64,000 nucleotides of DNA from Terriglobia bacterium (GTDB lineage Bacteria; Acidobacteriota; Terriglobia; 20CM-2-55-15): contig CAXWPJ010000002.1 in assembly GCA_963664115.2 (NCBI GenBank), positions 192,001-256,000 of the forward strand. Reading direction: 5' to 3'. This document shows positions 2,891 to 63,685 of this stretch, in pieces (within the stretch, counting starts at the first letter, position 1; each line of letters starts with the position of its first letter). The notes under the pieces are model-generated. The model did no database searches, was not told the DNA's origin, and saw nothing but the letters and a program-made list of their open reading frames with translations. A program made the translations under genes and the position numbers.

Positions 2891-2929
2891 TTCTCAAGGT
2901 CCGAGAAGATGATTTATCAGGACTTGACC
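2891..2929 (-). repeat. Palindromic site A (candidate recombination site)
   Basis: Minus strand GGTCAAGTCCTGATAA-ATCATC-TTCTCGGACCTTGAGAA; homologous to 4345, 9561/10824, 61773 and 63644. Confidence 0.85.
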
Positions 2930-2936
2930 TTGAATA

Positions 2937-2971
2937 TCAGGGGACTGGCACCCGTTCCTTCAGTTCTTCAA
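2937..2971 (-). pseudogene. Orphan 3' tail (EELKERVPVP*) of a Ser/Thr kinase-PD40 family gene
   Basis: TTGAAGAACTGAAGGAACGGGTGCCAGTCCCCTGA matches the tails at 9465-9524 and ~63580-63636. Confidence 0.7.
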
Positions 2972-3122
2972 GAGTCTGGACTCTTGCCCCTGCCTTCACT
3001 TCTAAGCGCTGAAGATTTGATTAGCTGTGAACTGATACTAAGGCGTCGTCTCTTCTTTCAGTTAGCCCAGCGTTGAGAAGAGGACGGCCCACACACCTGT
3101 TTCAAACACTCGGAGTTGTACT

Positions 3123-3968
3123 CTACGATTCCTCGGCTGCAGCTTTCGAACGCTTTCGCAGTCGGTCCAGCGCCCACGGGCCTCCGCCCAGGGCGGAAAG
3201 CAAGAGAAACGAGAAGCAGAAGTAAATCGCATCTTCGCCAAGGTTGAGTATCGGCCAGAATGTCCGGGGTTGATGGCTGAGGAAATAAGCGAAAGCCATT
3301 TGCCCGGAAAAAAAGAAAGCCAGCGGCCGTGTAAAGAGTCCCAAAAAGAGGAACGGTCCGAGAATGGTCTCGAATAGATGAGCGTATCCCGTCAGCGAAG
3401 AGAGGTTAGGGCCTTCGAACGGCTCTTCTCCGGCCGGCCACGGCCAGCCGATCATGTCTTCCGTCCCATGGGGCAGCCAAACGAAGAGAGTAGCGATCCT
3501 GAATACACTCAGTATTTGCGGTTCCCAGGGAGTTAGAAAGCCTGTGGGTTTCGCCTTGTCCCGCAACACTGCATCCAGACTCCACGCGCCGCCTCCGGCG
3601 GTCGCCAGGTAGAGGAAGGCAAAACAATAGAAAAACCATAGGTCGCCGCCATTGAATCCCGGCCAGAAGCTCTCGCTCGCGTGGTTCAGGATGTAGACCA
3701 ACGCCATCTCGCACGACAGAATAAAGGCGATGGGTACGGTGAAAATCCCCAGGAAGACAGCCAGGCCACCAAAGGTTTCGAGTATTCCGCTCTGTCCGAC
3801 CCACGAAAACAACTCGAAGCCATCGAATCCGCCACGGGGAGTCGGATAGCCAAAGACTTTTTGGGTTCCATGCGCCATGAAGAGATACGCAACAATAATC
3901 CTCAAAAGGCTTAGAATCTGGGGGCTCGAACGTTCAAGAAATTTGTCGAAGGCTGTCAGGATTTTCAT
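3123..3968 (-). CDS. DoxX-family membrane protein with tandem duplicated DoxX domain
   Basis: Two repeats of LRI...HG.Q/E...E..GG/LGP....G.FT.P.AF..S..MA..Y...H....GGG.W.LD. Confidence 0.85.
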   Translation of the reverse strand: MKILTAFDKFLERSSPQILSLLRIIVAYLFMAHGTQKVFGYPTPRGGFDGFELFSWVGQSGILETFGGLAVFLGIFTVPIAFILSCEMALVYILNHASESFWPGFNGGDLWFFYCFAFLYLATAGGGAWSLDAVLRDKAKPTGFLTPWEPQILSVFRIATLFVWLPHGTEDMIGWPWPAGEEPFEGPNLSSLTGYAHLFETILGPFLFLGLFTRPLAFFFSGQMAFAYFLSHQPRTFWPILNLGEDAIYFCFSFLLLSALGGGPWALDRLRKRSKAAAEES

Positions 3969-4128
3969 GGTGCAACAGCCTATAACACAAGAGTCTCGGG
4001 GGACAACGCGAGACATACCAGAGTTACACTCTCGACCGCTTTCCGACATTCCGGAGAAGTATCCCCGACGGGACTTCTACCCCGGTGGGCCTATCTCGCA
4101 CTGAACAGGTCAGCCTTAGCTGGACGCA

Positions 4129-4322
4129 CTGGGTGGCGAATTACTAGTTTCCCTTAAAGTTCAGGGACTTGAACCGGGGCCCAGGATCCGATCCCGAGTG
4201 GTCATGAGGTGAACCAGCAGGATAATCAGGTCGCGCATCGGCCGATCTTCGCGATCATTCCCACGATCACAAGACCCGAATTTTCAATGCGTTATCCGTT
4301 TGACTAGGAGTTCCCACCCACA
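4129..4322 (-). mobile_element. Internally deleted IS remnant (integrase-core transposase family)
   Basis: Contains MRDLIILLVHLMTTRDRILGPG, resembling the N-terminus of a common rve-transposase family, between short imperfect IRs (TGGGTGGCGAATT / TGGGTGGGAACT). Confidence 0.45.
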
Positions 4323-4344
4323 GGTGGATCGGGAGGCAATGGAA

Positions 4345-4382
4345 TCTCAAGGTCCGAGAAGATGATTTCTCAGGACTTGAGA
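4345..4382 (-). repeat. Palindromic site B
   Basis: Minus strand TCTCAAGTCCTGAGAA-ATCATC-TTCTCGGACCTTGAGA; one mismatch to site A in the core. Confidence 0.85.
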
Positions 4383-4489
4383 CGGACAATTGTCCGAATA
4401 GCTGGTTAGAACTAAGCCGCAGGCGCTCGGAGTCGGCGTACAGCAGATAGAGTCTGTCCCATAAAGTAGCGGTCATAAGGAGGTGTCTT

Positions 4490-5371
4490 ATGACCCAACT
4501 ACGAGAACGGATGCTGGAGGAACTCCAGCGACGGAACTATTCCCCGGCCACGAGTCGTGGCTACATTCTGGCAGTCGAACAATTCGCGAATTACTTCGGC
4601 AAGTCTCCGGCCTTGATGGGAGCCGAGGAGGTACGGCGTTTTCAGCTGTACTTACTGACCGAAAAGAAGCTGGCGGCGAGTACGGTCGGGATGCGGACCT
4701 CGGCGATACGATTCCTTTACAAGAAGGTGCTGCTGCGACGTGCGGATCTGGAACTGGATGATCTGCCCATGCCCAAGAGTGCGCGGAAACTACCCACGAT
4801 CCTGGGTCCGTCTGAAGTCCGCCGGTTGATCCAAGCCGCATTGAGTCCGATGCACCGGGCCATCCTGATGGTGCTCTACGGGACCGGGATGCGACGGGCC
4901 GAAGCCGCCGTGTTGAAGGTGGCCGACATCGACAGTGAACGGATGCTGGTGCATATCCGCGACGGGAAAGGGCGTCGGGACCGGGATGTCCCGTTGAGTC
5001 GCAATCTGCTTGAAGCGTTACGGGGGTACTGGTTATTGAAAAAGCCCGAGGTCTATCTGTTTCACAGCAGTGCAGGACACCGGGGCACGGATGCTCCGAT
5101 CTCGGACAAGGTGGTCTGGCATGCCGTTCATGGGGCCGCCCAGCGTGCGGGTCTGACCCAGAGGATCGGTCCGCACACGCTACGGCACAGCTTCGCGACC
5201 CACCTGCTAGAGTCCGGGACCGACTTGCGCACGATCCAGCTCTTGATGGGACACAGTCGGCTCAGCGATACCACGCTCTACCTGCAACTGTCCCGGCGCC
5301 ATCTTCGAACCGCGCGCAATCCTCTGGATCAGTTGAAGCTTTCACCTGTGGTTAAGGATCCAAAGAAGTGA
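4490..5371 (+). CDS. Tyrosine recombinase (Phage_int_SAM_4 + catalytic domain)
   Basis: YGTGMR, GKG, HTLRHSFATHLLE, LMGH...T..Y motifs; no integron IntI insertion patch is evident. Confidence 0.92.
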   Translation: MTQLRERMLEELQRRNYSPATSRGYILAVEQFANYFGKSPALMGAEEVRRFQLYLLTEKKLAASTVGMRTSAIRFLYKKVLLRRADLELDDLPMPKSARKLPTILGPSEVRRLIQAALSPMHRAILMVLYGTGMRRAEAAVLKVADIDSERMLVHIRDGKGRRDRDVPLSRNLLEALRGYWLLKKPEVYLFHSSAGHRGTDAPISDKVVWHAVHGAAQRAGLTQRIGPHTLRHSFATHLLESGTDLRTIQLLMGHSRLSDTTLYLQLSRRHLRTARNPLDQLKLSPVVKDPKK

Positions 5372-6552
5372 GCCGGCCACCCTTTGAGGTGGCTGACGTG
5401 ATTCGCATCGTCGGAGACCGATTCCGACAACGGTATTTGAAAGCGCTGGCCTGGCCCCAGGTCAAGGTCCTCAACGCGATTACCCATTGCCGGACCGCCG
5501 CACTGGGCGGGAACCGGAAACGATGCGACCACTGTGGCCACCAAACGCTGGTCTACCACTCGTGCCGGAACCGCCACTGCCCGAAGTGCCAGACCAATGC
5601 GCGGAACACCTGGGTCGAGAAACGGCAACAGGAACTGCTACCGATCGGATACTTCCATCTGGTCTTCAGCCTGCCCCATCAGTTGATCCCATTGATCTGG
5701 CAGAACAAGAAGGTGCTCTATGCGCTTCTGTTCCGAACCAGTGCGGCGGCGCTGATCGAAGTGGCCCGAAACCCCAGGTATCTGGGCGGCGAGATCGGAT
5801 TCCTCAGCATCCTGCATACCTGGGGACAAACCCTGCAACGCCATCCCCATATCCACTGTGTGGTTCCCGGTGGCGGACTGTCCCCGGATCACGACCGGTG
5901 GATCCACTCCTCCCGGACCGACTTCTTCCTCCCGGTCCAGAAGCTCAGCTACGTTTTCAGAGAAAAGTTTCTCGACGGTTTAGCCGAAGCCTTCGGAAAC
6001 AAGACGCTCGTTTTCCATGGGGAGTGTCTGGAACTGGCCACCGAATCCACCTTCGAGCGGTTCCTCGACGATCTGAAGGATCGGAACTGGGTGGTGTACG
6101 CCAAAGAACCATTCGGCGGACCCCAACACGTCCTTCAGTACCTGGCCCGCTATACCCATCGGGTGGCCATCTCGAATCATCGCATCCTCGATGTCAACCA
6201 ATCCGGCGTTACATTCCGCTGGAAGGACTATCGCCACAATGGCCGTCCACGAACAATGACACTCCAACCCGAAGAGTTCCTCCGTCGATTCCTCCTGCAT
6301 GTCTTACCGAAAGGCTTTCCCCGCATCCGGTACTACGGATGGATGGCAAATCGGAAACGCAAGACGATGCTGGAACTCTGTCGGCACCTCTTAGGTCAGG
6401 AGTCCATCACCGAGCCGGAGTCCGAGGCGGGTGCTACCCCACCGGCACCGTGTCCGATCTGCCGGGGACCGATGCGTCTGGTCGAGCGATTAACCGCGGC
6501 ACAGCTCGCCGCTCTCGAATCAAAGGAGGTTCCAATTCAGGATAGTGCGTAG
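5368..6552 (+). CDS. IS91-family Y2/HUH transposase
   Basis: Zn-binding HSCRNRHCPKCQ, HTWGQ..HPHIHC (HUH), YLARY. Confidence 0.92.
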   Translation: MSRPPFEVADVIRIVGDRFRQRYLKALAWPQVKVLNAITHCRTAALGGNRKRCDHCGHQTLVYHSCRNRHCPKCQTNARNTWVEKRQQELLPIGYFHLVFSLPHQLIPLIWQNKKVLYALLFRTSAAALIEVARNPRYLGGEIGFLSILHTWGQTLQRHPHIHCVVPGGGLSPDHDRWIHSSRTDFFLPVQKLSYVFREKFLDGLAEAFGNKTLVFHGECLELATESTFERFLDDLKDRNWVVYAKEPFGGPQHVLQYLARYTHRVAISNHRILDVNQSGVTFRWKDYRHNGRPRTMTLQPEEFLRRFLLHVLPKGFPRIRYYGWMANRKRKTMLELCRHLLGQESITEPESEAGATPPAPCPICRGPMRLVERLTAAQLAALESKEVPIQDSA

Positions 6553-7017
6553 CCATCGACACTCAACAATTCCAGCCCAACGCGGTCGTCCAGACTGCAT
6601 CGCCGAAGTGTGTCCAGACGCCAAAAACACGCGTGCTCAAGTGCCCTTTCGCTATATCCAACCCACCCCACTCGGGCGATCGACAGTGATTTTCCGCTAC
6701 AACCACCCCCCACCATCACTGCGTCTCCCCGATTCAGCCTCCAATCCATGGATTGAAAACCCATAGGTCTTCTCGTTCCCGGCCGCGCCTGCGCCTCACT
6801 TCAAACCATTCTATCCGACATGCCCCGGCATCATTTTTTGTCACTGTCGGTGCCGGACCATCTCCGATACAAAACTGACGTTAGCCGGCAAGAAACAAGC
6901 CAACATTGGAACTTGGACGCATACTTGATTACACGGACGAGTCGCAAGCTTCCGGAAGGTAACTTCCCGGTCCTTGTAAGCGCGTTGCTTGAAACGAGAC
7001 GAACCCTACGGCACTAG

Positions 7018-8866
7018 TCCCTGAACAAGCGTGATTGACGAGGAAATGATAGTGCAATAAGAGCGGAAGTACCCGAAATGCCCCCTCTCCGTGCGAAAAA
7101 AACCTTGGACAGATTCTTCGGAAAAGGAGGCATTTCAGATGAACGATTATACGCGCAAGAACATGAGGAACCGCAAGCGGCGAATCGAACGTCGGCTTGG
7201 GGACCGGCATTGGACGGATCAGGTAGAGCCGATGTTTTCGGCGAGCAACATTCAGTACGAGATGGGAGAGCGGACGCGGGGCACATCGGTTGGTGGTATC
7301 GGGACGATGCAACTGGTGGCGCGGCGGACCGGGCTGATCGAAGCCATCGACAAGGGCGTGCATGTGTTGAAGCGGCACCTGCCGTATCACGAGTCGGATC
7401 ACGTGCTGAACATCGCCTACAACGCCTTGAGCGGAGGAACGTGCCTGGAAGACATCGAACTGCGGCGCAACGATGCGGTGTATCTGGATGCGCTGGGAGC
7501 GCAACGGATTCCGGATCCGACGACGGCGGGAGACTTCTGCCGGAGATTCGAGGCCGACGACGTGGAGTGTCTGATGGAGGCAACCAATCAAGTCCGGCTC
7601 GGAGTCTGGCGACAGCAACCGGCGGCGTTTTTCGAAGAAGCGGTGTTGGACGCGGACGGGACACTGGCCGAAACCACGGGGGAATGCAAGCAAGGGATGG
7701 ACGTGGCCTACGACGGGACGTGGGGATATCACCCGCTGATGATCTCGCTGGCCAACACCGCCGAACCGCTGTATCTGGTCAATCGTAGCGGCAACCGGCC
7801 GTCGCATGAAGGAGCCGCGGTCCGGTTCGACCAAGCCATCGCATTGTGCCGGCATGCGGGGTTTCGCCAGATCCTGCTGCGCGGGGACACGGACTTCAGC
7901 CAGACCCGGCATCTGGACGGATGGGACGACCAGCAGGTGGGTTTCATATTCGGGATTGACGCGATGGCGAACCTGAAGGCCCGGGCCGATGAACTGGAGC
8001 CGCGCCAGTGGAAGCGCCTGGAACGGCCCGCGAAATACGACGTGGCGACCGAACCGCGCCAACGTCCCGACAACGTGAAGGAAGAGATCGTTCGGCAGCG
8101 CGGTTTCGACAATATCCGCTTGCAGGGTGAGGATGTGGCCGAGTTTCGGTATCGACCCGGAGCCTGCGATCGGGACTACCGTGTCGTCGTGGTGCGGAAG
8201 AATCTGTCGGTGGCCAAAGGAGAGCAGGTGTTGTTTGACGACATCCGGTACTTCTTCTACATTACCAACCGTTCGGATCCGGCCGACCAGATTGTGATGC
8301 GTGCCAATCAACGGTGCAATCAGGAGAATCTCATTGAGCAGTTGAAGAACGGCGTTCAGGCGTTGCGGATGCCGGTCGGAGATCAGACCAGCAACTGGGC
8401 CTACATGGTGATCGCGTCACTGGCCTGGACACTGAAAGCGTGGTTTGCATTGCTGCTTCCCGAAACCGGACGTTGGGGCCAAAAATATCAGGCTGAGAAG
8501 CAAACCGTGCTGCGCATGGAGTTCAAAACCTTCTTGAACGCTTTCATGCTTGTGCCGTGCCAACTCGTGCGCACCGGGCGGCGCATTCTGTTCCGGATCC
8601 TGGCCTGGAACCGGTGGTTGCCGGTCTTGTTCCGCGGGGTGGATGTGTTGCGTCAGCCTCTGCGATGTTGACCCGATCATGACTCTGAGCCCGGGCGATC
8701 GAGGTCCCGGTTTCTGTCAACCGTCCAACACCAGCGAGGCTGAACTGAAACAGATTCAACAGAAACTCGATACCTGGAACAGGCCATCCGGGAACGGGAT
8801 TCTATGCCTCGAATTCTATCGGCGCGAACTGGGCCTCGGCGGACTGGTTATGCGCTTGTTTTGGGA
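7018..8866 (+). mobile_element. IS1380-family insertion sequence, copy 2 (1849 bp, inverted relative to copy 1)
   Basis: Flanked by CTAG at 7014-7017 and 8867-8870; two SNPs noticed versus copy 1, both near the left end. Confidence 0.9.
7139..8671 (+). CDS. IS1380-family DDE transposase
   Basis: Same protein as 564-2096. Confidence 0.9.
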   Translation: MNDYTRKNMRNRKRRIERRLGDRHWTDQVEPMFSASNIQYEMGERTRGTSVGGIGTMQLVARRTGLIEAIDKGVHVLKRHLPYHESDHVLNIAYNALSGGTCLEDIELRRNDAVYLDALGAQRIPDPTTAGDFCRRFEADDVECLMEATNQVRLGVWRQQPAAFFEEAVLDADGTLAETTGECKQGMDVAYDGTWGYHPLMISLANTAEPLYLVNRSGNRPSHEGAAVRFDQAIALCRHAGFRQILLRGDTDFSQTRHLDGWDDQQVGFIFGIDAMANLKARADELEPRQWKRLERPAKYDVATEPRQRPDNVKEEIVRQRGFDNIRLQGEDVAEFRYRPGACDRDYRVVVVRKNLSVAKGEQVLFDDIRYFFYITNRSDPADQIVMRANQRCNQENLIEQLKNGVQALRMPVGDQTSNWAYMVIASLAWTLKAWFALLLPETGRWGQKYQAEKQTVLRMEFKTFLNAFMLVPCQLVRTGRRILFRILAWNRWLPVLFRGVDVLRQPLRC

Positions 8867-8895
8867 CTAGTGCGATCCTCTAAGATTACTTCTTC

Positions 8896-9464: not shown

Positions 9465-9524
9465 AGGATCAACATCGTCCTGAACTGGTTTGAAGAACTG
9501 AAGGAACGGGTGCCCCTGCCGTGA
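9465..9524 (+). pseudogene. Orphan kinase-PD40 3' tail (RINIVLNWFEELKERVPLP*)
   Basis: Manual translation; matches the tails at 2937 and ~63580. Confidence 0.75.
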
Positions 9525-9560: not shown

Positions 9561-9581
9561 TTCTCACTGCCTGATAAATCC
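9561..9581 (+). repeat. Palindromic site C, left half (split by IS30)
   Basis: TTCTCACTGCCTGATAAATCC; joined to 10826-10850 it rebuilds the repeat. Confidence 0.75.
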
Positions 9582-10823
9582 TGCCGGCTCAATCGGTCGA
9601 TGCAACACATGCGTTAAATCGTTCGGCCGGAGTCTGAAACCCCAGCGTTTGACGAGGCCGTCTATTGAGCTTCGCTGCAATCATATCCAGATGCTGCTGA
9701 GAGTGAACGGATAAGTCTGTTCTTTTCGGGAAATAGTGTCGAAGCAGGCCGTTCGTGTTTTCATTCGAGCCCCGTTGCCATGGACTTCTCGGATCGCAAA
9801 AGTAGACGGCAATGTCGGTGGCCAGAGTGAACCGTTTGTGATCGGCCATCTCCAGACCGCGATCCCAGGTCAGTGATTCGTAGAGTTCCCTTGGTAGTTG
9901 ATGCGCGTGTTCGATCAACGCGTTGATGACGGTTTCGGTTTTCTTGTTAGAAACTTTTGCCAGCATCACATAACGGGAGTGACGTTCGACCAGAGTGGCG
10001 ATGTAGGAGTTGTTCGAACCCGCTATCAGATCCCCTTCCCAATGACCGGGGACGGCACGATCTTCGACCGAAGCCGGGCGCTCACGGATCGAGACCATGT
10101 CTTCGATTTTTCCCTTTCCATGGCCTTTCCGGCTCGCTTTTGCGGATCGGCGGATCGTGCGTCCCGAGCGCAGATACTGAACGAATTCTTTCTTCAAAGC
10201 CCCGCGGGCCTGGATGAAAAGGCTGCGATAGATCGTCTCGTGGGACACGTGAAGCGACTTGTCGTCCGGGTATGTGTACTTGAGCCACCCGGCGATCTGT
10301 TGGGGCGCCCAGTCGTCGGCCAGCTTCTCTTCAACCAGTTGCCGTAGTCGCGGACACCGGGAAAGACAACACGGCTTCCGACGATGCGCACGTCCCCAGG
10401 CCCGCTGATCCGCAACCGACGCTCGATAGTTATCATCGCCCCCGTTGCGGGCAATCTCCCGGCTCACTGTCGAAGGTGCACGACCGAGTACGAGCGCAAT
10501 CGAGCGGATCGATCGTCGGGCTGCAATGCCTCTGGAAATCTCCTCGCGTTCGGCCAGACTCAGCGCCCGCGCCGAACGACAACGCGGGCGCGGCCGGATG
10601 CCTCCATAGACGGCCAGTTGCCCGTGAATTGTCGATCCCCCTCGATCCAGTACACGTCCGATCTCTTTAGTCGATTTCCCTTCCTGCCACAGTTTCCATA
10701 TCTTCACGACCTCGGCTGCTGTGAACCATCGCCGCTTCCTATACGTCTTCTTCTTTCGTTTCTTGGGCATACACTTCACCCCTCCTTTCATGTGAAGTGT
10801 TGCATTGACCCCTTGAGATCACC
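9582..10823 (-). mobile_element. IS30-family insertion sequence
   Basis: 26-bp imperfect IRs ending in ...GTC(G/A)ATGCAACA; 2-bp TSD CC (9580-81, 10824-25). Confidence 0.88.
9589..10770 (-). CDS. IS30-family transposase
   Basis: GHWEGDL, TWDRG, PWQRGSNENTNGLLR motifs; N-terminal HTH. Confidence 0.95.
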   Translation of the reverse strand: MPKKRKKKTYRKRRWFTAAEVVKIWKLWQEGKSTKEIGRVLDRGGSTIHGQLAVYGGIRPRPRCRSARALSLAEREEISRGIAARRSIRSIALVLGRAPSTVSREIARNGGDDNYRASVADQRAWGRAHRRKPCCLSRCPRLRQLVEEKLADDWAPQQIAGWLKYTYPDDKSLHVSHETIYRSLFIQARGALKKEFVQYLRSGRTIRRSAKASRKGHGKGKIEDMVSIRERPASVEDRAVPGHWEGDLIAGSNNSYIATLVERHSRYVMLAKVSNKKTETVINALIEHAHQLPRELYESLTWDRGLEMADHKRFTLATDIAVYFCDPRSPWQRGSNENTNGLLRHYFPKRTDLSVHSQQHLDMIAAKLNRRPRQTLGFQTPAERFNACVASTD

Positions 10824-10850
10824 CCTCTTGTCGGACGTTGAGATTTCACA
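10824..10850 (+). repeat. Palindromic site C, right half
   Basis: CCTCTTGTCGGACGTTGAGATTTCACA; compare 63661-63685 TCTTCTCGGACCTTGAGATTTCACA. Confidence 0.75.
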
Positions 10851-19084: not shown

Positions 19085-19933
19085 ATGTATTCCGCGCCGA
19101 TTCGCACACCGTTAACACTCACGCTCAAACAGCGCTTGAAAGACGCGGTCTTCAAAAACCGACACCCCTTCTCTTTCGGTTTGTCCCGCACCACCCGTCC
19201 CGAAACGATTTTTAGTGGAATCCGGGAAGTCGACCAGCTATCCACCGGGTTTCCCCGAGGCCGGATTACTGAGATCGTTGGACCCAATTCGTCAGGACGG
19301 ACCAGTCTTCTGCTCTCCACACTGGCCCAAGTCACTGATAAAGAAGAGGTCTGCGCTCTTATCGATCCGGCCGGCATTTTCGACCCTGCATCCGCAGTCC
19401 ACATCGGGGTCGATCTGGAACGACTCCTCTGGATCCGTACCCCGAAGCCCGACATCGATCCAACGCTCAAAGCGACGGATCTGCTGATTCAAGGAGGTGG
19501 ATTCGGATTGATCGGGGTCGACTTCGGGGGGTTTTCTCATGGTGAAATCGGCCGCGTTCCGCCCTCTTCATGGTTTCGGCTACAACGTGGGGTGCGAAAC
19601 ACGCCCACCATATTGCTTTTCATCGGACGGAAAGCATGCACCCGGGCATGCGCTTCCCTGGTCCTCGGTCTGGAACTGAACCACACGCATTGGACCCCGG
19701 GGCTCTTTGAGGGAATCTGCCCACAAGTTGAGATCCTGCGGTCCAGAATTGATTCCGGCATCAGCTGGAACCGGACACCGCAACGTTTTTTTATCCAACC
19801 CGCACACTTTCGGGCTATTGCCCCTGACCCGAATGACCCGGATGAACCGGATGACCCAGCCGAAAGTGCACCCTCAAAAAACAAGGAATCGAATATCTCG
19901 AATATCGAAGGAGTTCCCTGCCATGAGTTCTAG
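19085..19933 (+). CDS. imuA: ImuA / RecA-like mutasome protein
   Basis: G.PRG.ITEI.G..SSGRTS degenerate P-loop; G.DLERLL; first gene of the cassette. Confidence 0.85.
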   Translation: MYSAPIRTPLTLTLKQRLKDAVFKNRHPFSFGLSRTTRPETIFSGIREVDQLSTGFPRGRITEIVGPNSSGRTSLLLSTLAQVTDKEEVCALIDPAGIFDPASAVHIGVDLERLLWIRTPKPDIDPTLKATDLLIQGGGFGLIGVDFGGFSHGEIGRVPPSSWFRLQRGVRNTPTILLFIGRKACTRACASLVLGLELNHTHWTPGLFEGICPQVEILRSRIDSGISWNRTPQRFFIQPAHFRAIAPDPNDPDEPDDPAESAPSKNKESNISNIEGVPCHEF

Positions 19934-21563
19934 CGCAAAGATCATCGAGCATCGCCTCAACAAAAACACCAAGCCCGGCCCTCTCTCCGGTCCAACATAT
20001 GGCTGCATTCATATTCCCGACTATCCGGTTCAGGCCTTTATACGTAATGAACCCGATTTGCGACGGCGGCCGATGGCCATCCTCAATGGCACATTCCCTT
20101 TATTTACAGTGGTCGCAACGAACACGTTTGCCCGCGGGTTGGGCGTCCAAATCGGAATGACAAAGCTCCAAATCGAGCGTTTCCCCGATCTCATCGTACG
20201 TCACCGATCCGAGAAACAGGAAGATTCCGCACATCACGCCCTCATCGATTGTGCCAACTTTTTCACACCCCGCGTGGAAGATACGGCAACGGATACGGTC
20301 GCGCTCGATCTGAACGGATTGTCCCAACTGTGGGGCACACCCCGTGCCATGGCACAAAAGTTATTTCGAGCAGCCGATAAACTGGGACTGGAAGCCCACA
20401 TCGCCATCGCTTCGAACCCGGATGCAGCGATCCATGCTGCAAAAGCGGAGGCCGGTATCACTGTCATTGCGATGGGTGATGAGACCAGAAGATTAGCGTC
20501 CCTCGATCTTGACATCCTCGCCGCATCGGAAGAAATCCGGGCATCGTTCAGCCGCTGGGGGCTTCAGACTTTCCAGGATCTGGTCCGGCTTCCCGAGATC
20601 GGCGTGGTAGAACGCCTGGGCCAGGAAGGCCTGAAACTCCAACAGATGGCACGTGGAGAAACAAGCCGTCCTTTGCGGATTTTAAATGAAAAGCCATGCT
20701 TTAAAGAATCCATGGAACTCGATGATTCCATTGATTCATTAGAGCCGCTAACATTCATCTTCAGTCGGCTGTTAAACCAGCTCTGCCAACGGCTGGAAGC
20801 CCGCAACCGGGCCACCGACGCATTGTGCCTCAGCTTGACGCTTGAGCCCTTGACGCTTGAGCCCTTATCGATGGAAAAACCCCTCAAGGAAGAAGATGCA
20901 GGAGATGAAAAAGACGCAGAAGACCCGGGAACATCACCCCACCGTTTCGTCCGAACCATCCGCCTGCCAACACCTACGCGGGATTCCAGAGTTTTATTGA
21001 AGCTCCTGCAATTGGATCTGGACGCACACCGCCCCCCTCGACCCGTCATCGGCGTCACGCTTAGCGCGGAACCGGCCCCACCGCGCCGCATCCAGAACGG
21101 ATTGTTCGTTCCCCTGGCACCCGAACCCGAGAAGCTGGAACTCACACTGGCCCGGATTGGAACCATTGTCGGAAACGACCGCATCGGTTCACCCCGCCTG
21201 CTCGATACACATCGCCCCGATCGATTCCGCATCCAGCACTTCACTGTTCCGACCCGATCGAAAGCCAGACGATTGCCTCGAAACCCGCCGACTTCAATGG
21301 CTCTGCGTATGTTCAGGCCACCTCTGGAAGCAACCGTCGAAAAGCTTGGAGGCCAACTGTCCCGAATCTTCTTCTCAGGCAGATCCGGAAAGGTCACGAC
21401 CGCACGCGGACCATGGAGTACCTCAGGGGAATGGTGGCGCGAAAATCCATGGAACCGGGAGGAATGGGACGTCGAAGTTCAAAGTGGTCAGGACCGCAGC
21501 CTGTATCGCATTTACCAGGACCAGCGGACTTATCAATGGTTCGTCCATGCGACCTACGATTGA
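19923..21563 (+). CDS. imuB: ImuB, inactive Y-family polymerase
   Basis: Y-family fold lacking catalytic acids; GPW...GEWW C-terminal motif; upstream of dnaE2. Confidence 0.88.
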   Translation: MSSSAKIIEHRLNKNTKPGPLSGPTYGCIHIPDYPVQAFIRNEPDLRRRPMAILNGTFPLFTVVATNTFARGLGVQIGMTKLQIERFPDLIVRHRSEKQEDSAHHALIDCANFFTPRVEDTATDTVALDLNGLSQLWGTPRAMAQKLFRAADKLGLEAHIAIASNPDAAIHAAKAEAGITVIAMGDETRRLASLDLDILAASEEIRASFSRWGLQTFQDLVRLPEIGVVERLGQEGLKLQQMARGETSRPLRILNEKPCFKESMELDDSIDSLEPLTFIFSRLLNQLCQRLEARNRATDALCLSLTLEPLTLEPLSMEKPLKEEDAGDEKDAEDPGTSPHRFVRTIRLPTPTRDSRVLLKLLQLDLDAHRPPRPVIGVTLSAEPAPPRRIQNGLFVPLAPEPEKLELTLARIGTIVGNDRIGSPRLLDTHRPDRFRIQHFTVPTRSKARRLPRNPPTSMALRMFRPPLEATVEKLGGQLSRIFFSGRSGKVTTARGPWSTSGEWWRENPWNREEWDVEVQSGQDRSLYRIYQDQRTYQWFVHATYD

Positions 21564-21584
21564 AGAAAGGCAAAGAAAAACCTT

Positions 21585-21797
21585 TCACCGCAGAGGCGCA
21601 AAGACGCAAAAGAAGAAAGAGAAAGACGGGATAGGCTGCCTACATCCCGATCAACCCGCGCAGGTCGGGTTAACAAGAACGTCGTTCGAAACCCATAGGG
21701 ATCTCGTCAAACGAAATCCACACAGACCACCCGTCTTCCTTTGCGTCTTTGCGTCTCTGCGGTTTTTTCTTCTTCCCTCTGCACCTCTGCTGTGAAT
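21585..21797. repeat. REP-like inverted tandem-octamer repeat (CGCAAAGA type)
   Basis: ACCGCAGAGGCGCAAAGACGCAAA ... TTTGCGTCTTTGCGTCTCTGCGGT. Confidence 0.75.
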
Positions 21798-21801
21798 TCC
21801 G

Positions 21802-24800
21802 ATGTATGTCGAATTGCATGCGGCATCTGCTTTCAGTTTTCTTGAAGCCGCTTCACTGCCCGAAGACCTTGCAGCGACAGCGGCACGGATGGACATGGCG
21901 GCCATGGCCATTGTCGACCGGGGGGGCGTTTACGGCGCGCCACGGTTTCACCTGGAAGCTCGACGCGTAGGCGTCCAGCCCCATATCGGCGCTGAAATTA
22001 CAGTTACGGGCGGATACCGCTATCCCCTGCTGGTCGCGACCCGGCAGGGATACCGCAATCTCTGCCGCCTGATCACACACATCAAGATGCGCGCGGTCAA
22101 AGGCGAAGGCACGGCGACACTGGAAGAACTGGCCGAACACGCCGCAGGCCTCATCTGCCTGACCGGAGACGAACGCGGCCCACTGGCTGGAGCACTTGGG
22201 AACGGGGGCGTTTCGGTAGCACGCCAGTGCCTCATTCAACTCACGCATATCTTTGGACGCTCCAATGTCTACGTGGAATTGCAACGCCACTTTGACCGCC
22301 AGGAAGAAGCCCGTCTCGAGGCCTGCTGTGAACTTGCCGATCACATGCGGCTCCCGATTCTTGCGACCAATGGCGTCCGGCACACCGACCACCGCGAAAT
22401 CCTGGACGTATTCACCGCGATCCGCAATCACAGAACATTGGAATCCGCCGGACGGCTGCTTTCCAACAACGCCGAACGCCGTTTTAAGAGCCCGAAAGAG
22501 ATGGCCCTCCTGTTCAAAGACCTTCCTGAAGCGATCGCCAACACGGGCGAGCTTTCTTCGAGGCTCGTGTTCACGATGAACGACCTCGGCTACCGCTTCC
22601 CTCCATACGCCGTCCCGGATGGTGACACGATGCACTCGTTTCTTCGGAAAAGAACGTATGAGGGCGCCCACAACCGCTACCGGCCGCTTCATCCGAAAGC
22701 CCGTCGGCAGATCGAACGCGAGCTGGCTTTAATCGAAAAGCTCCAACTGGCTGGCTATTTTCTGATCGTCTGGGACATCGTTCAGTTCTGCCGCAGAGAA
22801 AACATACTGGTTCAGGGTCGGGGTTCGGCGGCCAACAGTGCCGTTTGCTATTCACTGGGGATCACGGCAGTCGATCCAGTGGGGATGGATCTTCTCTTCG
22901 AACGATTTCTTTCTGAAGAGCGTGGGGAGTGGCCTGATATCGATCTGGATTTGCCGAGTGGAAGTCAGCGCGAGCGGGCCATCCAGTACGTCTATGCGCG
23001 CTACGGACGGCGCGGGGCAGCCATGACCGCTAACGTGATCACCTACCGGGGCCGGTCTGCTGCACGTGAAGTCGGCAAGGTGCTTGGCTTCGATCCGGAA
23101 ACGCTCGGCCGACTCTCCAAGCTGGTCAGTCGCTGGGAATACCAGGACCCGAACGACAGCCTGGAGGGAAAATTCCGGACTGCGGGACTGGATACAAACC
23201 ATCCCCGTATCCGCAAGTTCATCGAGCTTGCCGTCAGTCTCCAAAAACTGCCCCGGCATCTCGGACAGCATTCCGGCGGCCTGGTGATCTGTGAGGGAAC
23301 CCTGGATTCGATCGTGCCGCTGGAACCGGCATCGATGCCGGGCCGCACTGTCGTTCAATGGGACAAAGACGACTGTGCCCACATGGGCATCATCAAAGTC
23401 GATCTGCTGGGGCTGGGGATGATGGCGGTACTCGAAGATACGATCCAACTCATTCGGGACAACAATAACGAAACAGTCGATCTGGCCCATTTACCCGCAG
23501 ATGACCCCACCGTCTATCAAACGCTTCAGAGGGCCGACACCGTGGGTATGTTCCAGATCGAAAGCCGCGCACAGATGTCCTGCCTGCCCCGTTTGAGACC
23601 CACCCGCTTTTACGATCTGGTCGTCCAGGTGGCCATCATCCGCCCGGGACCCATTGTCGGCAAGATGGTCCATCCATATCTCAACCGTCGGCAGGGCCGT
23701 GAACCGGTTCGCTATGACCACCCATCGCTCGAACCTGTTTTGAAACGGACGCTGGGCGTTCCGCTCTTTCAGGAACAACTCTTACGGCTGGCTATGATCG
23801 CTGCCGGGTTCAGCGGGGGGCAAGCCGAAGAACTCCGCCGCGCCTTCGGTTTCAAACGATCCGAAGAAAAAATGGGCGACATCGAAATCAAATTACGCGA
23901 AGGCATGCAGAAAAGGGGGATCACCGGGGATGCCCAGGACAGGATAGTCGGGTCGATCACATCCTTCGCGCTCTATGGGTTCCCCGAATCCCATGCGGCG
24001 AGCTTCGCACTCATTGCCTATGCCAGTGCATACCTCAAATGTCATTATTTACCGGCATTTACAGCGGCAATCTTAAACAATCAGCCGATGGGGTTTTACA
24101 GTCCCGCGACGCTGGTCAAAGACGCCCAGCGTCACGGCTTGCGTGTCTTGCCCATCGATGCCGCGCGATCGGACTGGCTCTGCAGTCTCGAGAAGAACCA
24201 GATAAAGACCGGCCCGGGAGAGGCGCTCACCCTTCGCCTGGGCTTGAACTACGTCAAAGGTCTCCGCGAAGTGCCCGGACTCCGAATCGTCAAAGAGCGC
24301 AGCCGCAAAGCCTTCACTTCAATAGAAGACCTGGCGCACCGTGTCCCCGAACTTCAAAAAAAAGAATTGACGCTGCTGGCAGAGGTTGGAGCACTGAACT
24401 TCATTCAAAAGGACACGCGCATACACCGTCGTGACGCGCTCTGGCAGGTGGAACGGGCCTCACGACCCTCCGGCCCCTTATTCGACACTACAAAGACGCC
24501 CGATGCGCCTTCCCCGCTGCACCCGATGAACGCTGAAGAACGCCTTCTGGCCGATTTTCGGGTATCCGGCTTAACAACGGGCCCCCACCCGATGGCGTTC
24601 TGCCGGGACCGTCTCGATAGAATGGGGATTCGCCCGGCGGCGGACCTCCACCACACGCCGAACGGGACATGGGTTAAAGCCGCGGGCTGTGTGATTGCAC
24701 GTCAACGCCCGGGAACGGCCAAAGGTTTTGTTTTTTTGAGCCTGGAAGACGAAACCGGCATTGCCAATGTGATATTTACGCCGGACATGTTGGAGCGGAA

Positions 24801-24942
24801 CCGTGCCCTGATTACAGCAGAGCGCTTCATTCTGATCGAAGGCCGGCTCCAGCACGTCGACAACGTTGTTTCTGTAAAAGCACAAAGAATTCACGCGTTA
24901 TCGATAACTGAAGCCCCCACACAGTCCCGGGACTTCTACTGA
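21802..24942 (+). CDS. dnaE2: Error-prone DNA polymerase DnaE2
   Basis: YVELH..S.FSFL, GRGSAANS, PDIDLD, C-terminal SRDF motif. Confidence 0.96.
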   Translation: MYVELHAASAFSFLEAASLPEDLAATAARMDMAAMAIVDRGGVYGAPRFHLEARRVGVQPHIGAEITVTGGYRYPLLVATRQGYRNLCRLITHIKMRAVKGEGTATLEELAEHAAGLICLTGDERGPLAGALGNGGVSVARQCLIQLTHIFGRSNVYVELQRHFDRQEEARLEACCELADHMRLPILATNGVRHTDHREILDVFTAIRNHRTLESAGRLLSNNAERRFKSPKEMALLFKDLPEAIANTGELSSRLVFTMNDLGYRFPPYAVPDGDTMHSFLRKRTYEGAHNRYRPLHPKARRQIERELALIEKLQLAGYFLIVWDIVQFCRRENILVQGRGSAANSAVCYSLGITAVDPVGMDLLFERFLSEERGEWPDIDLDLPSGSQRERAIQYVYARYGRRGAAMTANVITYRGRSAAREVGKVLGFDPETLGRLSKLVSRWEYQDPNDSLEGKFRTAGLDTNHPRIRKFIELAVSLQKLPRHLGQHSGGLVICEGTLDSIVPLEPASMPGRTVVQWDKDDCAHMGIIKVDLLGLGMMAVLEDTIQLIRDNNNETVDLAHLPADDPTVYQTLQRADTVGMFQIESRAQMSCLPRLRPTRFYDLVVQVAIIRPGPIVGKMVHPYLNRRQGREPVRYDHPSLEPVLKRTLGVPLFQEQLLRLAMIAAGFSGGQAEELRRAFGFKRSEEKMGDIEIKLREGMQKRGITGDAQDRIVGSITSFALYGFPESHAASFALIAYASAYLKCHYLPAFTAAILNNQPMGFYSPATLVKDAQRHGLRVLPIDAARSDWLCSLEKNQIKTGPGEALTLRLGLNYVKGLREVPGLRIVKERSRKAFTSIEDLAHRVPELQKKELTLLAEVGALNFIQKDTRIHRRDALWQVERASRPSGPLFDTTKTPDAPSPLHPMNAEERLLADFRVSGLTTGPHPMAFCRDRLDRMGIRPAADLHHTPNGTWVKAAGCVIARQRPGTAKGFVFLSLEDETGIANVIFTPDMLERNRALITAERFILIEGRLQHVDNVVSVKAQRIHALSITEAPTQSRDFY

Positions 24943-61772: not shown

Positions 61773-61816
61773 TTCTCACTGTCCGACAAGGTCTTCTCGG
61801 ACATTGAGAATTTCAC
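61773..61816 (+). repeat. Palindromic site D
   Basis: TTCTCACTGTCCGACAA-GGTC-TTCTCGGACATTGAGAATTTCAC. Confidence 0.75.
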
Positions 61817-63290: not shown

Positions 63291-63636
63291 GTTGGAGGTG
63301 CGGTGCGGCAAAGCGTATCAGTGAACGGGGGGACGCAGCCAATGTGGACCGCCAACGGTGAACTCTTTTGTCGGACGTTGTCGGGCGACAGAATGATGGT
63401 GGTCGAAGTCTCTCTCGGACCGGACCTGGTGCTTGGCGGAACGCAGCAATTGTTCGAGGCGTTTTATGACATGGGTCCGGGTGGTCCATACTGAAACTAC
63501 GACGTGACAGCCGACAGCCAGCGATTCCTCATAGTCCAGAACACCCCGATTACAAACAGCGAGGCAGTGCCGCCCCCGAATCAACATCGTCCTGAACTGG
63601 TTTTAAGAACTGAAGGAGCGGGTGCCGGTACCTTAA
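63291..63636 (+). pseudogene. 3' remnant of a Ser/Thr kinase-PD40 (TolB-like) gene
   Basis: VSVNGGTQPMW...GELF...YDVTADSQRFL...INIVLNWF*ELKERVPVP*, with two stops and a frameshift. Confidence 0.8.
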
Positions 63637-63643
63637 TTTTCCG

Positions 63644-63685
63644 GGTCAAGTCCTGATAAATCTTCTCGGACCTTGAGATTTCACA
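63644..63685 (+). repeat. Palindromic site E
   Basis: GGTCAAGTCCTGATAA-ATC-TTCTCGGACCTTGAGATTTCACA; equals site A minus one ATC. Confidence 0.85.

Follow-up and report, generated by a model that had tools for sequence, protein, structure and literature searches.

The Terriglobia genome studied here (G000) carries 178 copies of a two-armed site, and the arrangement of these copies makes it probable, at about two chances in three, that matching sites undergo strand exchange at their 6-bp spacer, catalysed by a tyrosine recombinase. The enzyme would thereby shuffle the segments between direct sites of one spacer class (T-T) and swap modules enclosed by inverted sites of two classes (H...T), with kinase genes as founding cassettes. 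This reading is built from sequence comparison and rests on the observed census and anatomy of the site, its two spacer classes and their orientation rule, cassettes that are bounded by sites, the reassortment of flanks, the association of kinase heads and tails with sites, and the lengths of the kinase stubs. The window, i.e., the whole stretch of 64,000 nucleotides that was analysed, comprises C2:192001-256000 of this genome, and coordinates without a contig name are those of the window. Relatives are designated G001, G002, etc., and loci examined bear L numbers. Sites with the organisation 14-6-14 are called class-1 and those with 16-6-16 class-2; T denotes the spacer ATCATC, and H the spacers ACGACA and ACGACC.

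Anatomy and orientation of the sites

A profile built from the arms only retrieved the 178 full sites, and none in the shuffled genome. The consensus is TCAAGTCCTGAGAA-ATCATC-TTCTCGGACGTTGA; the T spacer is present in 131 of the 178 sites and an H spacer in 21. The sites are spread over nine of the 12 contigs in about 50 clusters, and clusters of at least three sites add up to about 343 kb, or 7% of the genome. T sites follow kinase tails, H sites stand inverted ahead of kinase heads, and at 103 of the 178 sites no tail lies within 70 nt. Neighbouring pairs less than 8 kb apart (n=121) comprise 77 direct pairs with the same and six with different spacer classes, as well as four inverted pairs with the same and 34 with different classes; these pairs overlap in origin by segmental duplication, and the counts are non-independent. 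The same pattern was found in 19 loci of G002 with 84 sites, where 40 of 42 direct pairs are T-T and 18 of 20 inverted pairs are H-T (different spacers in 19 of 20). Direct pairs make up 83 of the 121 neighbours in G000, and alternation of orientation along the array is not strict. Eight inverted pairs are spaced by 57-59 nt, and their paired spacers are always different. The idea that direct T-T pairs conceal degenerate inverted sites was rejected, since an arm-like match is present downstream of only 29 of 144 T sites (null 9%). The strand of T sites relative to the GC skew is weakly biased (90 versus 55).

A simple terminator of the kinase gene family, the scenario against which the initial annotation had set its own proposal, does not agree with these sites. 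An intrinsic terminator was rejected because a T-run is found at 0 of 178 sites, and the arms lack covariation (66 paired versus 70.8 expected, p=0.31). For three of four sites of the window, folds are no better than those of shuffled sequences (z of about -0.2 to -0.8). The missing covariation, the weak folds and the missing T-run speak against both a terminator and a hairpin of the attC kind, and the first two properties point to arms that are bound by protein as duplex DNA. A known RNA family was also rejected, as the only Rfam matches in the window are three tRNAs. The chromosomal dif site was ruled out by the 178 copies and by a separate canonical dif-like site at C2:108128 (minus strand), at the GC-skew switch of this contig. 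Compared with the host dif, one arm matches the XerC arm at a mean of 6.8 of 11 positions, with the inner ATAA missing, and the other arm matches the XerD arm at 5.0 of 11; the TTAT core, or ATAA-N6-TTAT, occurs in none of the 178 sites.

The eight closely spaced inverted pairs would be REPINs if the site were a selfish hairpin of the REP type, mobilised by a RAYT (Y1) transposase. In line with this explanation, the region C10:490-493 kb contains two RAYT-like Y1 genes, which have a single site about 220 nt upstream and none downstream, and Y1 matches are present in four of five relatives. We nevertheless regard it as very improbable, because the arms show no covariation and fold weakly, the spacers of such pairs always differ, the Y1 genes are not bracketed by site pairs, G143 bears both site classes and has no Y1 match, and the duplications of cassette size would be left unexplained. 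The RAYT-like genes themselves (C10:489979-493155) are arranged as a direct duplication that encloses an abortive-infection-like gene pair (assigned by eye), with a tRNA fragment and a class-1 site upstream.

The class-1 site was detected in ten of 401 genomes of the class, including all four others of its own genus, four of five of the genus g4, and one other family, and it was absent from 400 other genomes of the phylum and from viral contigs. Exact matches were present in ten public stretches, all of them from Terriglobia. Part of the window cassette occurs in 20 of the 21 runs listed, from seawater, sponge, marine sediment and host organisms, and 11 contain at least half of it. A second, homologous site family with 16-6-16 organisation has the spacers GTCGCC and ACCGCC and follows the same direct/inverted logic. 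It was found in nine of 35 family genomes (g1, g4, g10) and stands behind kinase tails at L157-L176 (G143, G102, G013, G021, G004, G007), with a few copies in G000; its inverted pairs are 69 nt apart and are struck by the same insertion elements. Tail DNA is present in 12 of the 35 family genomes, in the same genera g1, g4 and g10, and this kinase subfamily accompanies the site family. G331, from another family of the class, has three intergenic look-alike sites (L029, L030) with near-symmetric arms and no kinase stubs.

Kinase tails and heads around the sites

The initial annotation had described three kinase gene tails without their genes, each upstream of a site, and all three are present in the window. 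Tail A (2937-2971, minus strand), a coding end of 35 nt for ..EELKERVPVP and stop, abuts unrelated DNA. A 7-nt linker (2930-2936, minus strand) leads from its stop codon to the 16-mer GGTCAAGTCCTGATAA at 2929-2914, and the full T-type class-1 site, with arm TCAAGTCCTGATAA, spacer ATCATC and arm TTCTCGGACCTTGA, occupies 2894-2927 (minus strand). Another full T-type class-1 site is located at 4347-4380 (minus strand). Between these direct T sites lies a 1.42-kb cassette (2928-4346, minus strand), which contains a DoxX-family gene (3123-4049, minus strand) together with tail A and is also present in a contig of run X1 (2954-4349, 10 differences), where 172 extra bases do not align to the window. 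An IS91-type element (4405-6879, plus strand) with genes for a tyrosine recombinase (4490-5371) and an IS91 transposase (5368-6552) begins about 25 nt from the latter site and just beyond the spacer of a degenerate class-2 site; an empty allele of this copy was found in run X1. Identical 1860-bp elements encoding a DDE_Tnp_1_4 transposase bracket the cassette region as an inverted pair (364-2223 and 7012-8871).

Tail C (INIVLNWFEELKERVPLP and stop; 9468-9524, plus strand) is followed after 36 nt by the TTCTCA start of the motif and after 39 nt by the variant left arm of a split site (9564-9577, plus strand). The right arm (10828-10841, plus strand) is parted from it by an IS30-like element in the spacer (9581-10825, minus strand, ends approximate), the ORF of which (9589-10791) has HTH_38 and rve domains. 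Tail E closes a decayed kinase-PD40 3' fragment with a frameshift and an in-frame TAA (63294-63636, plus strand). Seven nucleotides separate its end from the 16-mer motif, which starts at 63644, so that A and E share a gap of 7 nt, and the class-1 site there (63646-63676, plus strand) has a 3-nt spacer deletion and starts an array that extends to C2:272142. The 16-mer has two exact matches in the window, versus 0.28 expected at up to three mismatches. A degenerate site at 61774-61809 (strand undefined) consists of two right arms back to back. Genes of the ImuB/DnaE2 mutagenesis type (IMS and DNA polymerase III alpha domains) were observed at 19707-24942.

Genome-wide, a tail profile gave 142 matches and none in shuffled DNA at the same threshold. 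The suggested measurement of tail-to-site distances revealed that sites are strongly enriched just 3' of tails: a site arm lies within 100 nt of 93 of the 142 tails, 65 of them at the 7-nt gap, at a chance level of about 0.003 per position. Counting full-length against orphan copies showed that near-full-length kinase homology ends in only six of the 142 tails. Against eight reference kinases, 126 tails lack kinase homology past the last 57 nt, and a broader search suggested that about 20 are longer fragments. Intact parent genes encode proteins of about 890 aa with Pkinase and PD40 domains, and sites flank intact kinases. The proposed derivation of the tails from different paralogs of an expanded Ser/Thr kinase-PD40 family is supported, and the third-position differences noticed in the window hold for the whole genome, with 88, 62 and 313 mismatches to the tail consensus at codon positions 1, 2 and 3. 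Expansion of kinases has been described for an acidobacterium in a report whose accessible text does not mention such sites (PMC3174227). Tandem operons of full-length kinase-PD40 genes with overlapping stop and start codons, and also short tail-head junction pieces amid foreign genes, were observed at L157-L165 and L175 (G143, G102, G017).

The initial annotation compared the kinase 3' end with the 3' ends of tRNA genes as attachment hotspots. According to this explanation, the tail would contain a fixed core into which islands integrate, each bringing a replacement 3' end and leaving tandem orphan tails. The tails are indeed short, repeated and polarised in the arrays, and the breakpoints are modestly concentrated at 40 nt (11 of 66). 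But the 77 junctions within the conserved tail motif involve 66 distinct upstream sequences, distributed over 24-53 nt, and the overall scatter of breakpoints over 24-60 nt largely refutes a fixed core. In addition, the tails differ as paralogs do and are not copies of one core, heads are orphaned as well, many sites have no tail, no integrase was found at array ends in G000, and the palindromic site itself is where exchange is precise. A tRNA-like core inside the tail is therefore hardly credible. The other part of the claim, that the tail is a hot spot of exchange, stood, as the comparison between species below shows. One element has inserted three times at an identical point within the tail motif, after CTGAACTG (C6:31711, C2:764677 and C12:585585 of G000).

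The alternative offered at the outset, kinases that are themselves cassettes overwritten from the 5' side, comes closer to the data, but the overwriting is two-sided. Orphan 5' ends are represented by 56 kinase heads, six of full length and 50 truncated; 46 of the 56 are at most 300 nt long, and 43 have a site within 200 nt upstream. The 83 segments between direct sites contain a tail only in 36 cases, a head only in four, both in four and neither in 39, and the rarity of head and tail together was counted against the cassette reading. Stub lengths at 170 T anchors are rarely 4-34 nt (15) and commonly 35-60 nt or more (73). Nine kinases that were compared have a likeness of 66-88% within their first 400 nt (about 60% for G2a) and of 63-90% within their last 60 nt, and their interior is mostly 35-60% alike. 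The stub lengths correspond to the zones in which this likeness still allows paralogs to recombine by homology. Two kinases share 87-100% of their interior and differ in their heads; the suggested swapping of sensors thus has one real case of an interior swap, but the incoming DNA is mostly unrelated cargo. Identical cargo with different tail alleles was found in different species. A search for donors of the tail junctions yielded mainly the same junction in other species, and true donors were too few for a measurement of microhomology. Overall, the kinases look like founding cassettes with replaced interiors, the conserved ends of which form a second exchange zone. An imperfect hairpin repeat of about 90 nt, which starts with CGGATAAGC and ends with the XerD-arm-like TTATGTCAAC, has 36 matches in G000 (e.g., C1:103978, C2:94050, C12:509423), mostly near arrays and often fused into kinase heads.

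Exchange at the sites and candidate enzymes

A cassette of 1255 bp recurs with 99.8% identity and one of 355 bp with 96.9%, and outside both sites the identity of the flanks drops to 0.15-0.31. A 681-bp unit also recurs (90.6%) with unrelated DNA outside, its second copy having a 5' site split by an IS. Among the 83 segments between direct sites, duplicates of whole segments are mostly part of larger duplications. In the 1255-bp pair the inward-facing arms differ at two positions each in spite of the 99.8% identity of the body, for which a single crossover in the spacer is inadequate. In each of 22 site pairs, some of which are duplicates or IS alleles, the members share one flank and differ in the other, and several have no further sequence in common but the site. 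Identity of the right arm was found in six of 12 pairs with the same right flank (10% for 8140 unrelated pairs), and identity of the left arm in four of ten pairs with the same left flank (19% for unrelated pairs). This tendency of the arm to follow its flank indicates that most crossovers occur in or near the spacer. Some of the cargo consists of one small gene, which starts 26-75 nt from the right arm, and at the other extreme stand pieces with several genes, for secreted proteins and hydrolases (functions assigned by eye, DoxX excepted); both orientations occur, with 93 versus 61 ORFs. Site-site joints in contigs of the runs have short sides (20-30 nt) and were discounted as evidence; the comparison with runs was at the contig level, is confounded by the repeat and cannot reveal circles. 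Cassettes at C11:54786-55500 and C2:771600-772477 contain what, by eye, resemble remnants of integron cassettes, with GTTAGGC ahead of the start codon and shortened attC-like TAAC stretches.

Array contents are common to several species at 88-98% identity, in shuffled pieces. A comparison of G000 with 31 loci of four relatives revealed 185 homology ends. In 21 cases both genomes have a site at the end (coverage 2.5%), and in 14 both have a tail there (coverage 1.7%); a feature marks the end in just one of the genomes in 31 cases, and 115 ends coincide with no feature. The enrichment at sites and tails argues for hot spots inside heavily eroded arrays, and the featureless majority indicates that much of the shuffling is not site-specific. 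These numbers also bear on an explanation in which expanded kinase arrays simply decay, the site being a passive operator or regulatory element and reassortment being due to homologous or short-homology recombination over the repeat of tail and site. Besides the featureless breakpoints and the tails as exchange hot spots, it could account for the fact that no cognate recombinase was found and that relatives carry tandem kinases and short tails without class-1 sites. In 20 loci of seven relatives, picked for dense tails, 35 tails close long frames and 40 are short, head-to-tail fusions of kinases are frequent, and a class-1 site stands behind only one of the 75 tails (weak); short tails in g4 and g10 without this site show that orphan tails are independent of it. 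However, such decay does not explain the tail-less sites, nor cassette identity that stops at sites with the 34-bp site as the sole shared sequence, and an operator has no cause to follow a rule of spacers and orientation in two genomes and two site families. Together with the absence of T-runs, this makes passive decay an unlikely account of the arrays.

Under the preferred reading, strand exchange would take place where the 6-bp spacer meets the arms and would require partners with matching spacers. Direct T-T pairs could then excise or insert cassettes. The inverted H...T pair around a kinase could not invert, and a double exchange would swap the whole module, as in dif modules. A new cassette might be born when foreign DNA joins inside an old kinase cassette by a short-homology or illegitimate event that leaves a head and/or a tail stub. 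Stubs would endure at the lengths at which paralogs are alike (about the first 400 and the last 60 nt) because exchange by homology spreads them, and random deletion would erode the rest. Capture by NHEJ was rejected, as Ku was not found in G000, G002 and G004.

Several insertion elements use the spacer as a target. One of them, with an ORF that presumably belongs to the IS256 type, which it resembles, is represented by seven left and seven right junctions at the spacer, and at least nine IS30-like copies were found there. A group II intron as invader of the spacer was rejected, as the contig bearing those junctions has no reverse-transcriptase gene. The IS91-type elements with an integron-like tyrosine recombinase were seen in the window (4405-6879), on C1, C3, C10 and C12 of G000, and at L042-L071 and L078-L097; G000 has six identical copies, and G017 and G001 have 44 and 20 matches, respectively.

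Such elements are located 2 nt past the spacer of a class-1 or class-2 site in 19 of 48 distinct junctions (null 0.0004), which raises the question of whether their recombinase (window 4490-5371 and paralogs) drives the system, with the rolling-circle transposase aiding a capture with ragged ends that would explain the scattered tail junctions. The elements are present in most site-bearing genomes of g1, g4 and g10, the best NCBIfam match of the recombinase is integron integrase (below the cut-off), and IS91 recombinases have been placed within an integron-like group in the accessible part of one study (10.1101/542381). Yet G003 has 44 sites and its assembly contains no IS91-linked recombinase or transposase, the elements occur also in genomes without class-1 sites (G018, G019, G036), no site arm is present at 29 of the 48 junctions, and insertion ruins the site, as a parasite would. 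We therefore consider this driving role quite improbable.

The search for the enzyme of the preferred reading yielded 27 PF00589 matches in G000. No hidden divergent tyrosine recombinase was found there beyond fragments, and the only tyrosine recombinases that adjoin sites are the IS91-linked ones and one lone gene. Phage-type integrases of G000 are 1-390 kb away from the nearest site, and an IntI-like gene is 195 kb away; no match of IntI length was detected in G003 and G004. XerC, XerD, a P4-like integrase and a fragment are all that G000 has in common with G003, which is 95% complete, and this comparison revealed no dedicated recombinase that is co-distributed with the site. The genomes checked have both XerC and XerD (C9:863207-864193 and C2:150455-151384, respectively, in G000), which stay as candidates by elimination. 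A pdif site that departs from the ATAA/TTAT core was catalytically inactive according to the available text of one report (PMC11705084). Our first guess, a tentative one, is the host XerC/XerD pair, probably with a helper; the IS91-linked IntI-like recombinase comes second and is more doubtful, and otherwise an unrecognised protein would be the enzyme.

The lone tyrosine recombinase gene (C5:52189-53154, L013) lies between two inverted H sites with divergent kinase heads. This is the sole inverted H-H pair with the same spacer, and the segment could therefore be invertible. As the enzyme of the system the gene was rejected, because it was not found at E<1e-40 in G002, G003 and G004. A crude palindrome scan around members of its family gave candidates near five of 30 loci and missed the own sites of G000, and the gene was tentatively read as cargo. 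G000 has three serine resolvases, and nothing found so far ties them to the arrays.

Comparison with known systems

In the literature searched, mostly open-access text, no description of the class-1 site or of kinase-seeded arrays was found, and the gene-cassette system is apparently previously undescribed. The extent of the site clusters together with the 88-98% identity between species makes it look like a main route for accessory genes in this marine acidobacterial clade. The stubs would preserve intermediates of cassette creation, which to our knowledge is an unexplained step in integrons. The IS91-type recombinase, which has been little studied, gains a testable target, and the natural pair of incompatible sites could serve engineering.

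The closest resemblance is to the pdif/dif modules of Acinetobacter and the chromosomal dif module islands, which, as described in the available text, are likewise linear arrays of many sites whose two arms enclose a 6-bp spacer (PMC13141974, PMC12907356, PMC11705084). As here, their genes are bracketed by inverted sites that differ in spacer, exchange goes with identical spacers, the array contains no recombinase gene, and the sites are targets of IS elements (10.1101/2022.12.17.520857). In contrast, the sites described here have no XerD arm and no ATAA-N6-TTAT core, their arms are conserved over 14-17 bp instead of 11, and most neighbours are direct repeats of one spacer. Furthermore, about 180 copies are chromosomal and form the roughly 50 clusters, with kinases as founders whose stubs remain. 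Xer activity is reported, in the part of the source that is accessible, to need the TTAT core (PMC11705084). If the site is recombined as proposed, shuffling of the dif-module kind would extend beyond Acinetobacter to a site that breaks the core rule of Xer, which would imply a new enzyme or a new way of Xer activation.

Other relatives of dif share single features. The difH/XerH and difSL/XerS systems have, in the available descriptions, two imperfect arms, a 6-bp centre and a one-base arm offset, like the site described here (PMC5241119, PMC5357621). However, difH and difSL are single-copy terminus sites, whereas G000 has a separate canonical dif and no XerH- or XerS-like gene is tied to the site. 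The IMEX sites of the TLC phage and the gonococcal island have a degenerate XerD arm according to the accessible text (PMC5357621), which resembles the XerD-side arm here, the other one being XerC-like. But IMEX sites match the spacer of the chromosomal dif and integrate at dif; the sites described here share no such spacer and are spread over most contigs.

Integron arrays are likewise polarised series of direct sites around one or a few genes, with small promoter-proximal cargo, and the attC-like remnants add to the likeness. The differences concern the site and the enzyme: attC folds as a single strand, its arms covary and it has extrahelical bases, whereas no hairpin covariation is found here; the right arm moves with the downstream flank, which a crossover at the outer G|TT would not lead one to expect; the IntI-like gene is remote from any site; and the cargo has both orientations. 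It is tempting, but for the time being doubtful, to see here a third kind of gene cassette beside integrons and dif modules, characterised by mutually incompatible paired spacer classes, hundreds of chromosomal sites with arms of 14-16 bp and a recombinase without a known link to the arrays. Such a system would have been seeded by kinase sensors, and its stubs would record the birth of cassettes around DNA that is traded between species.
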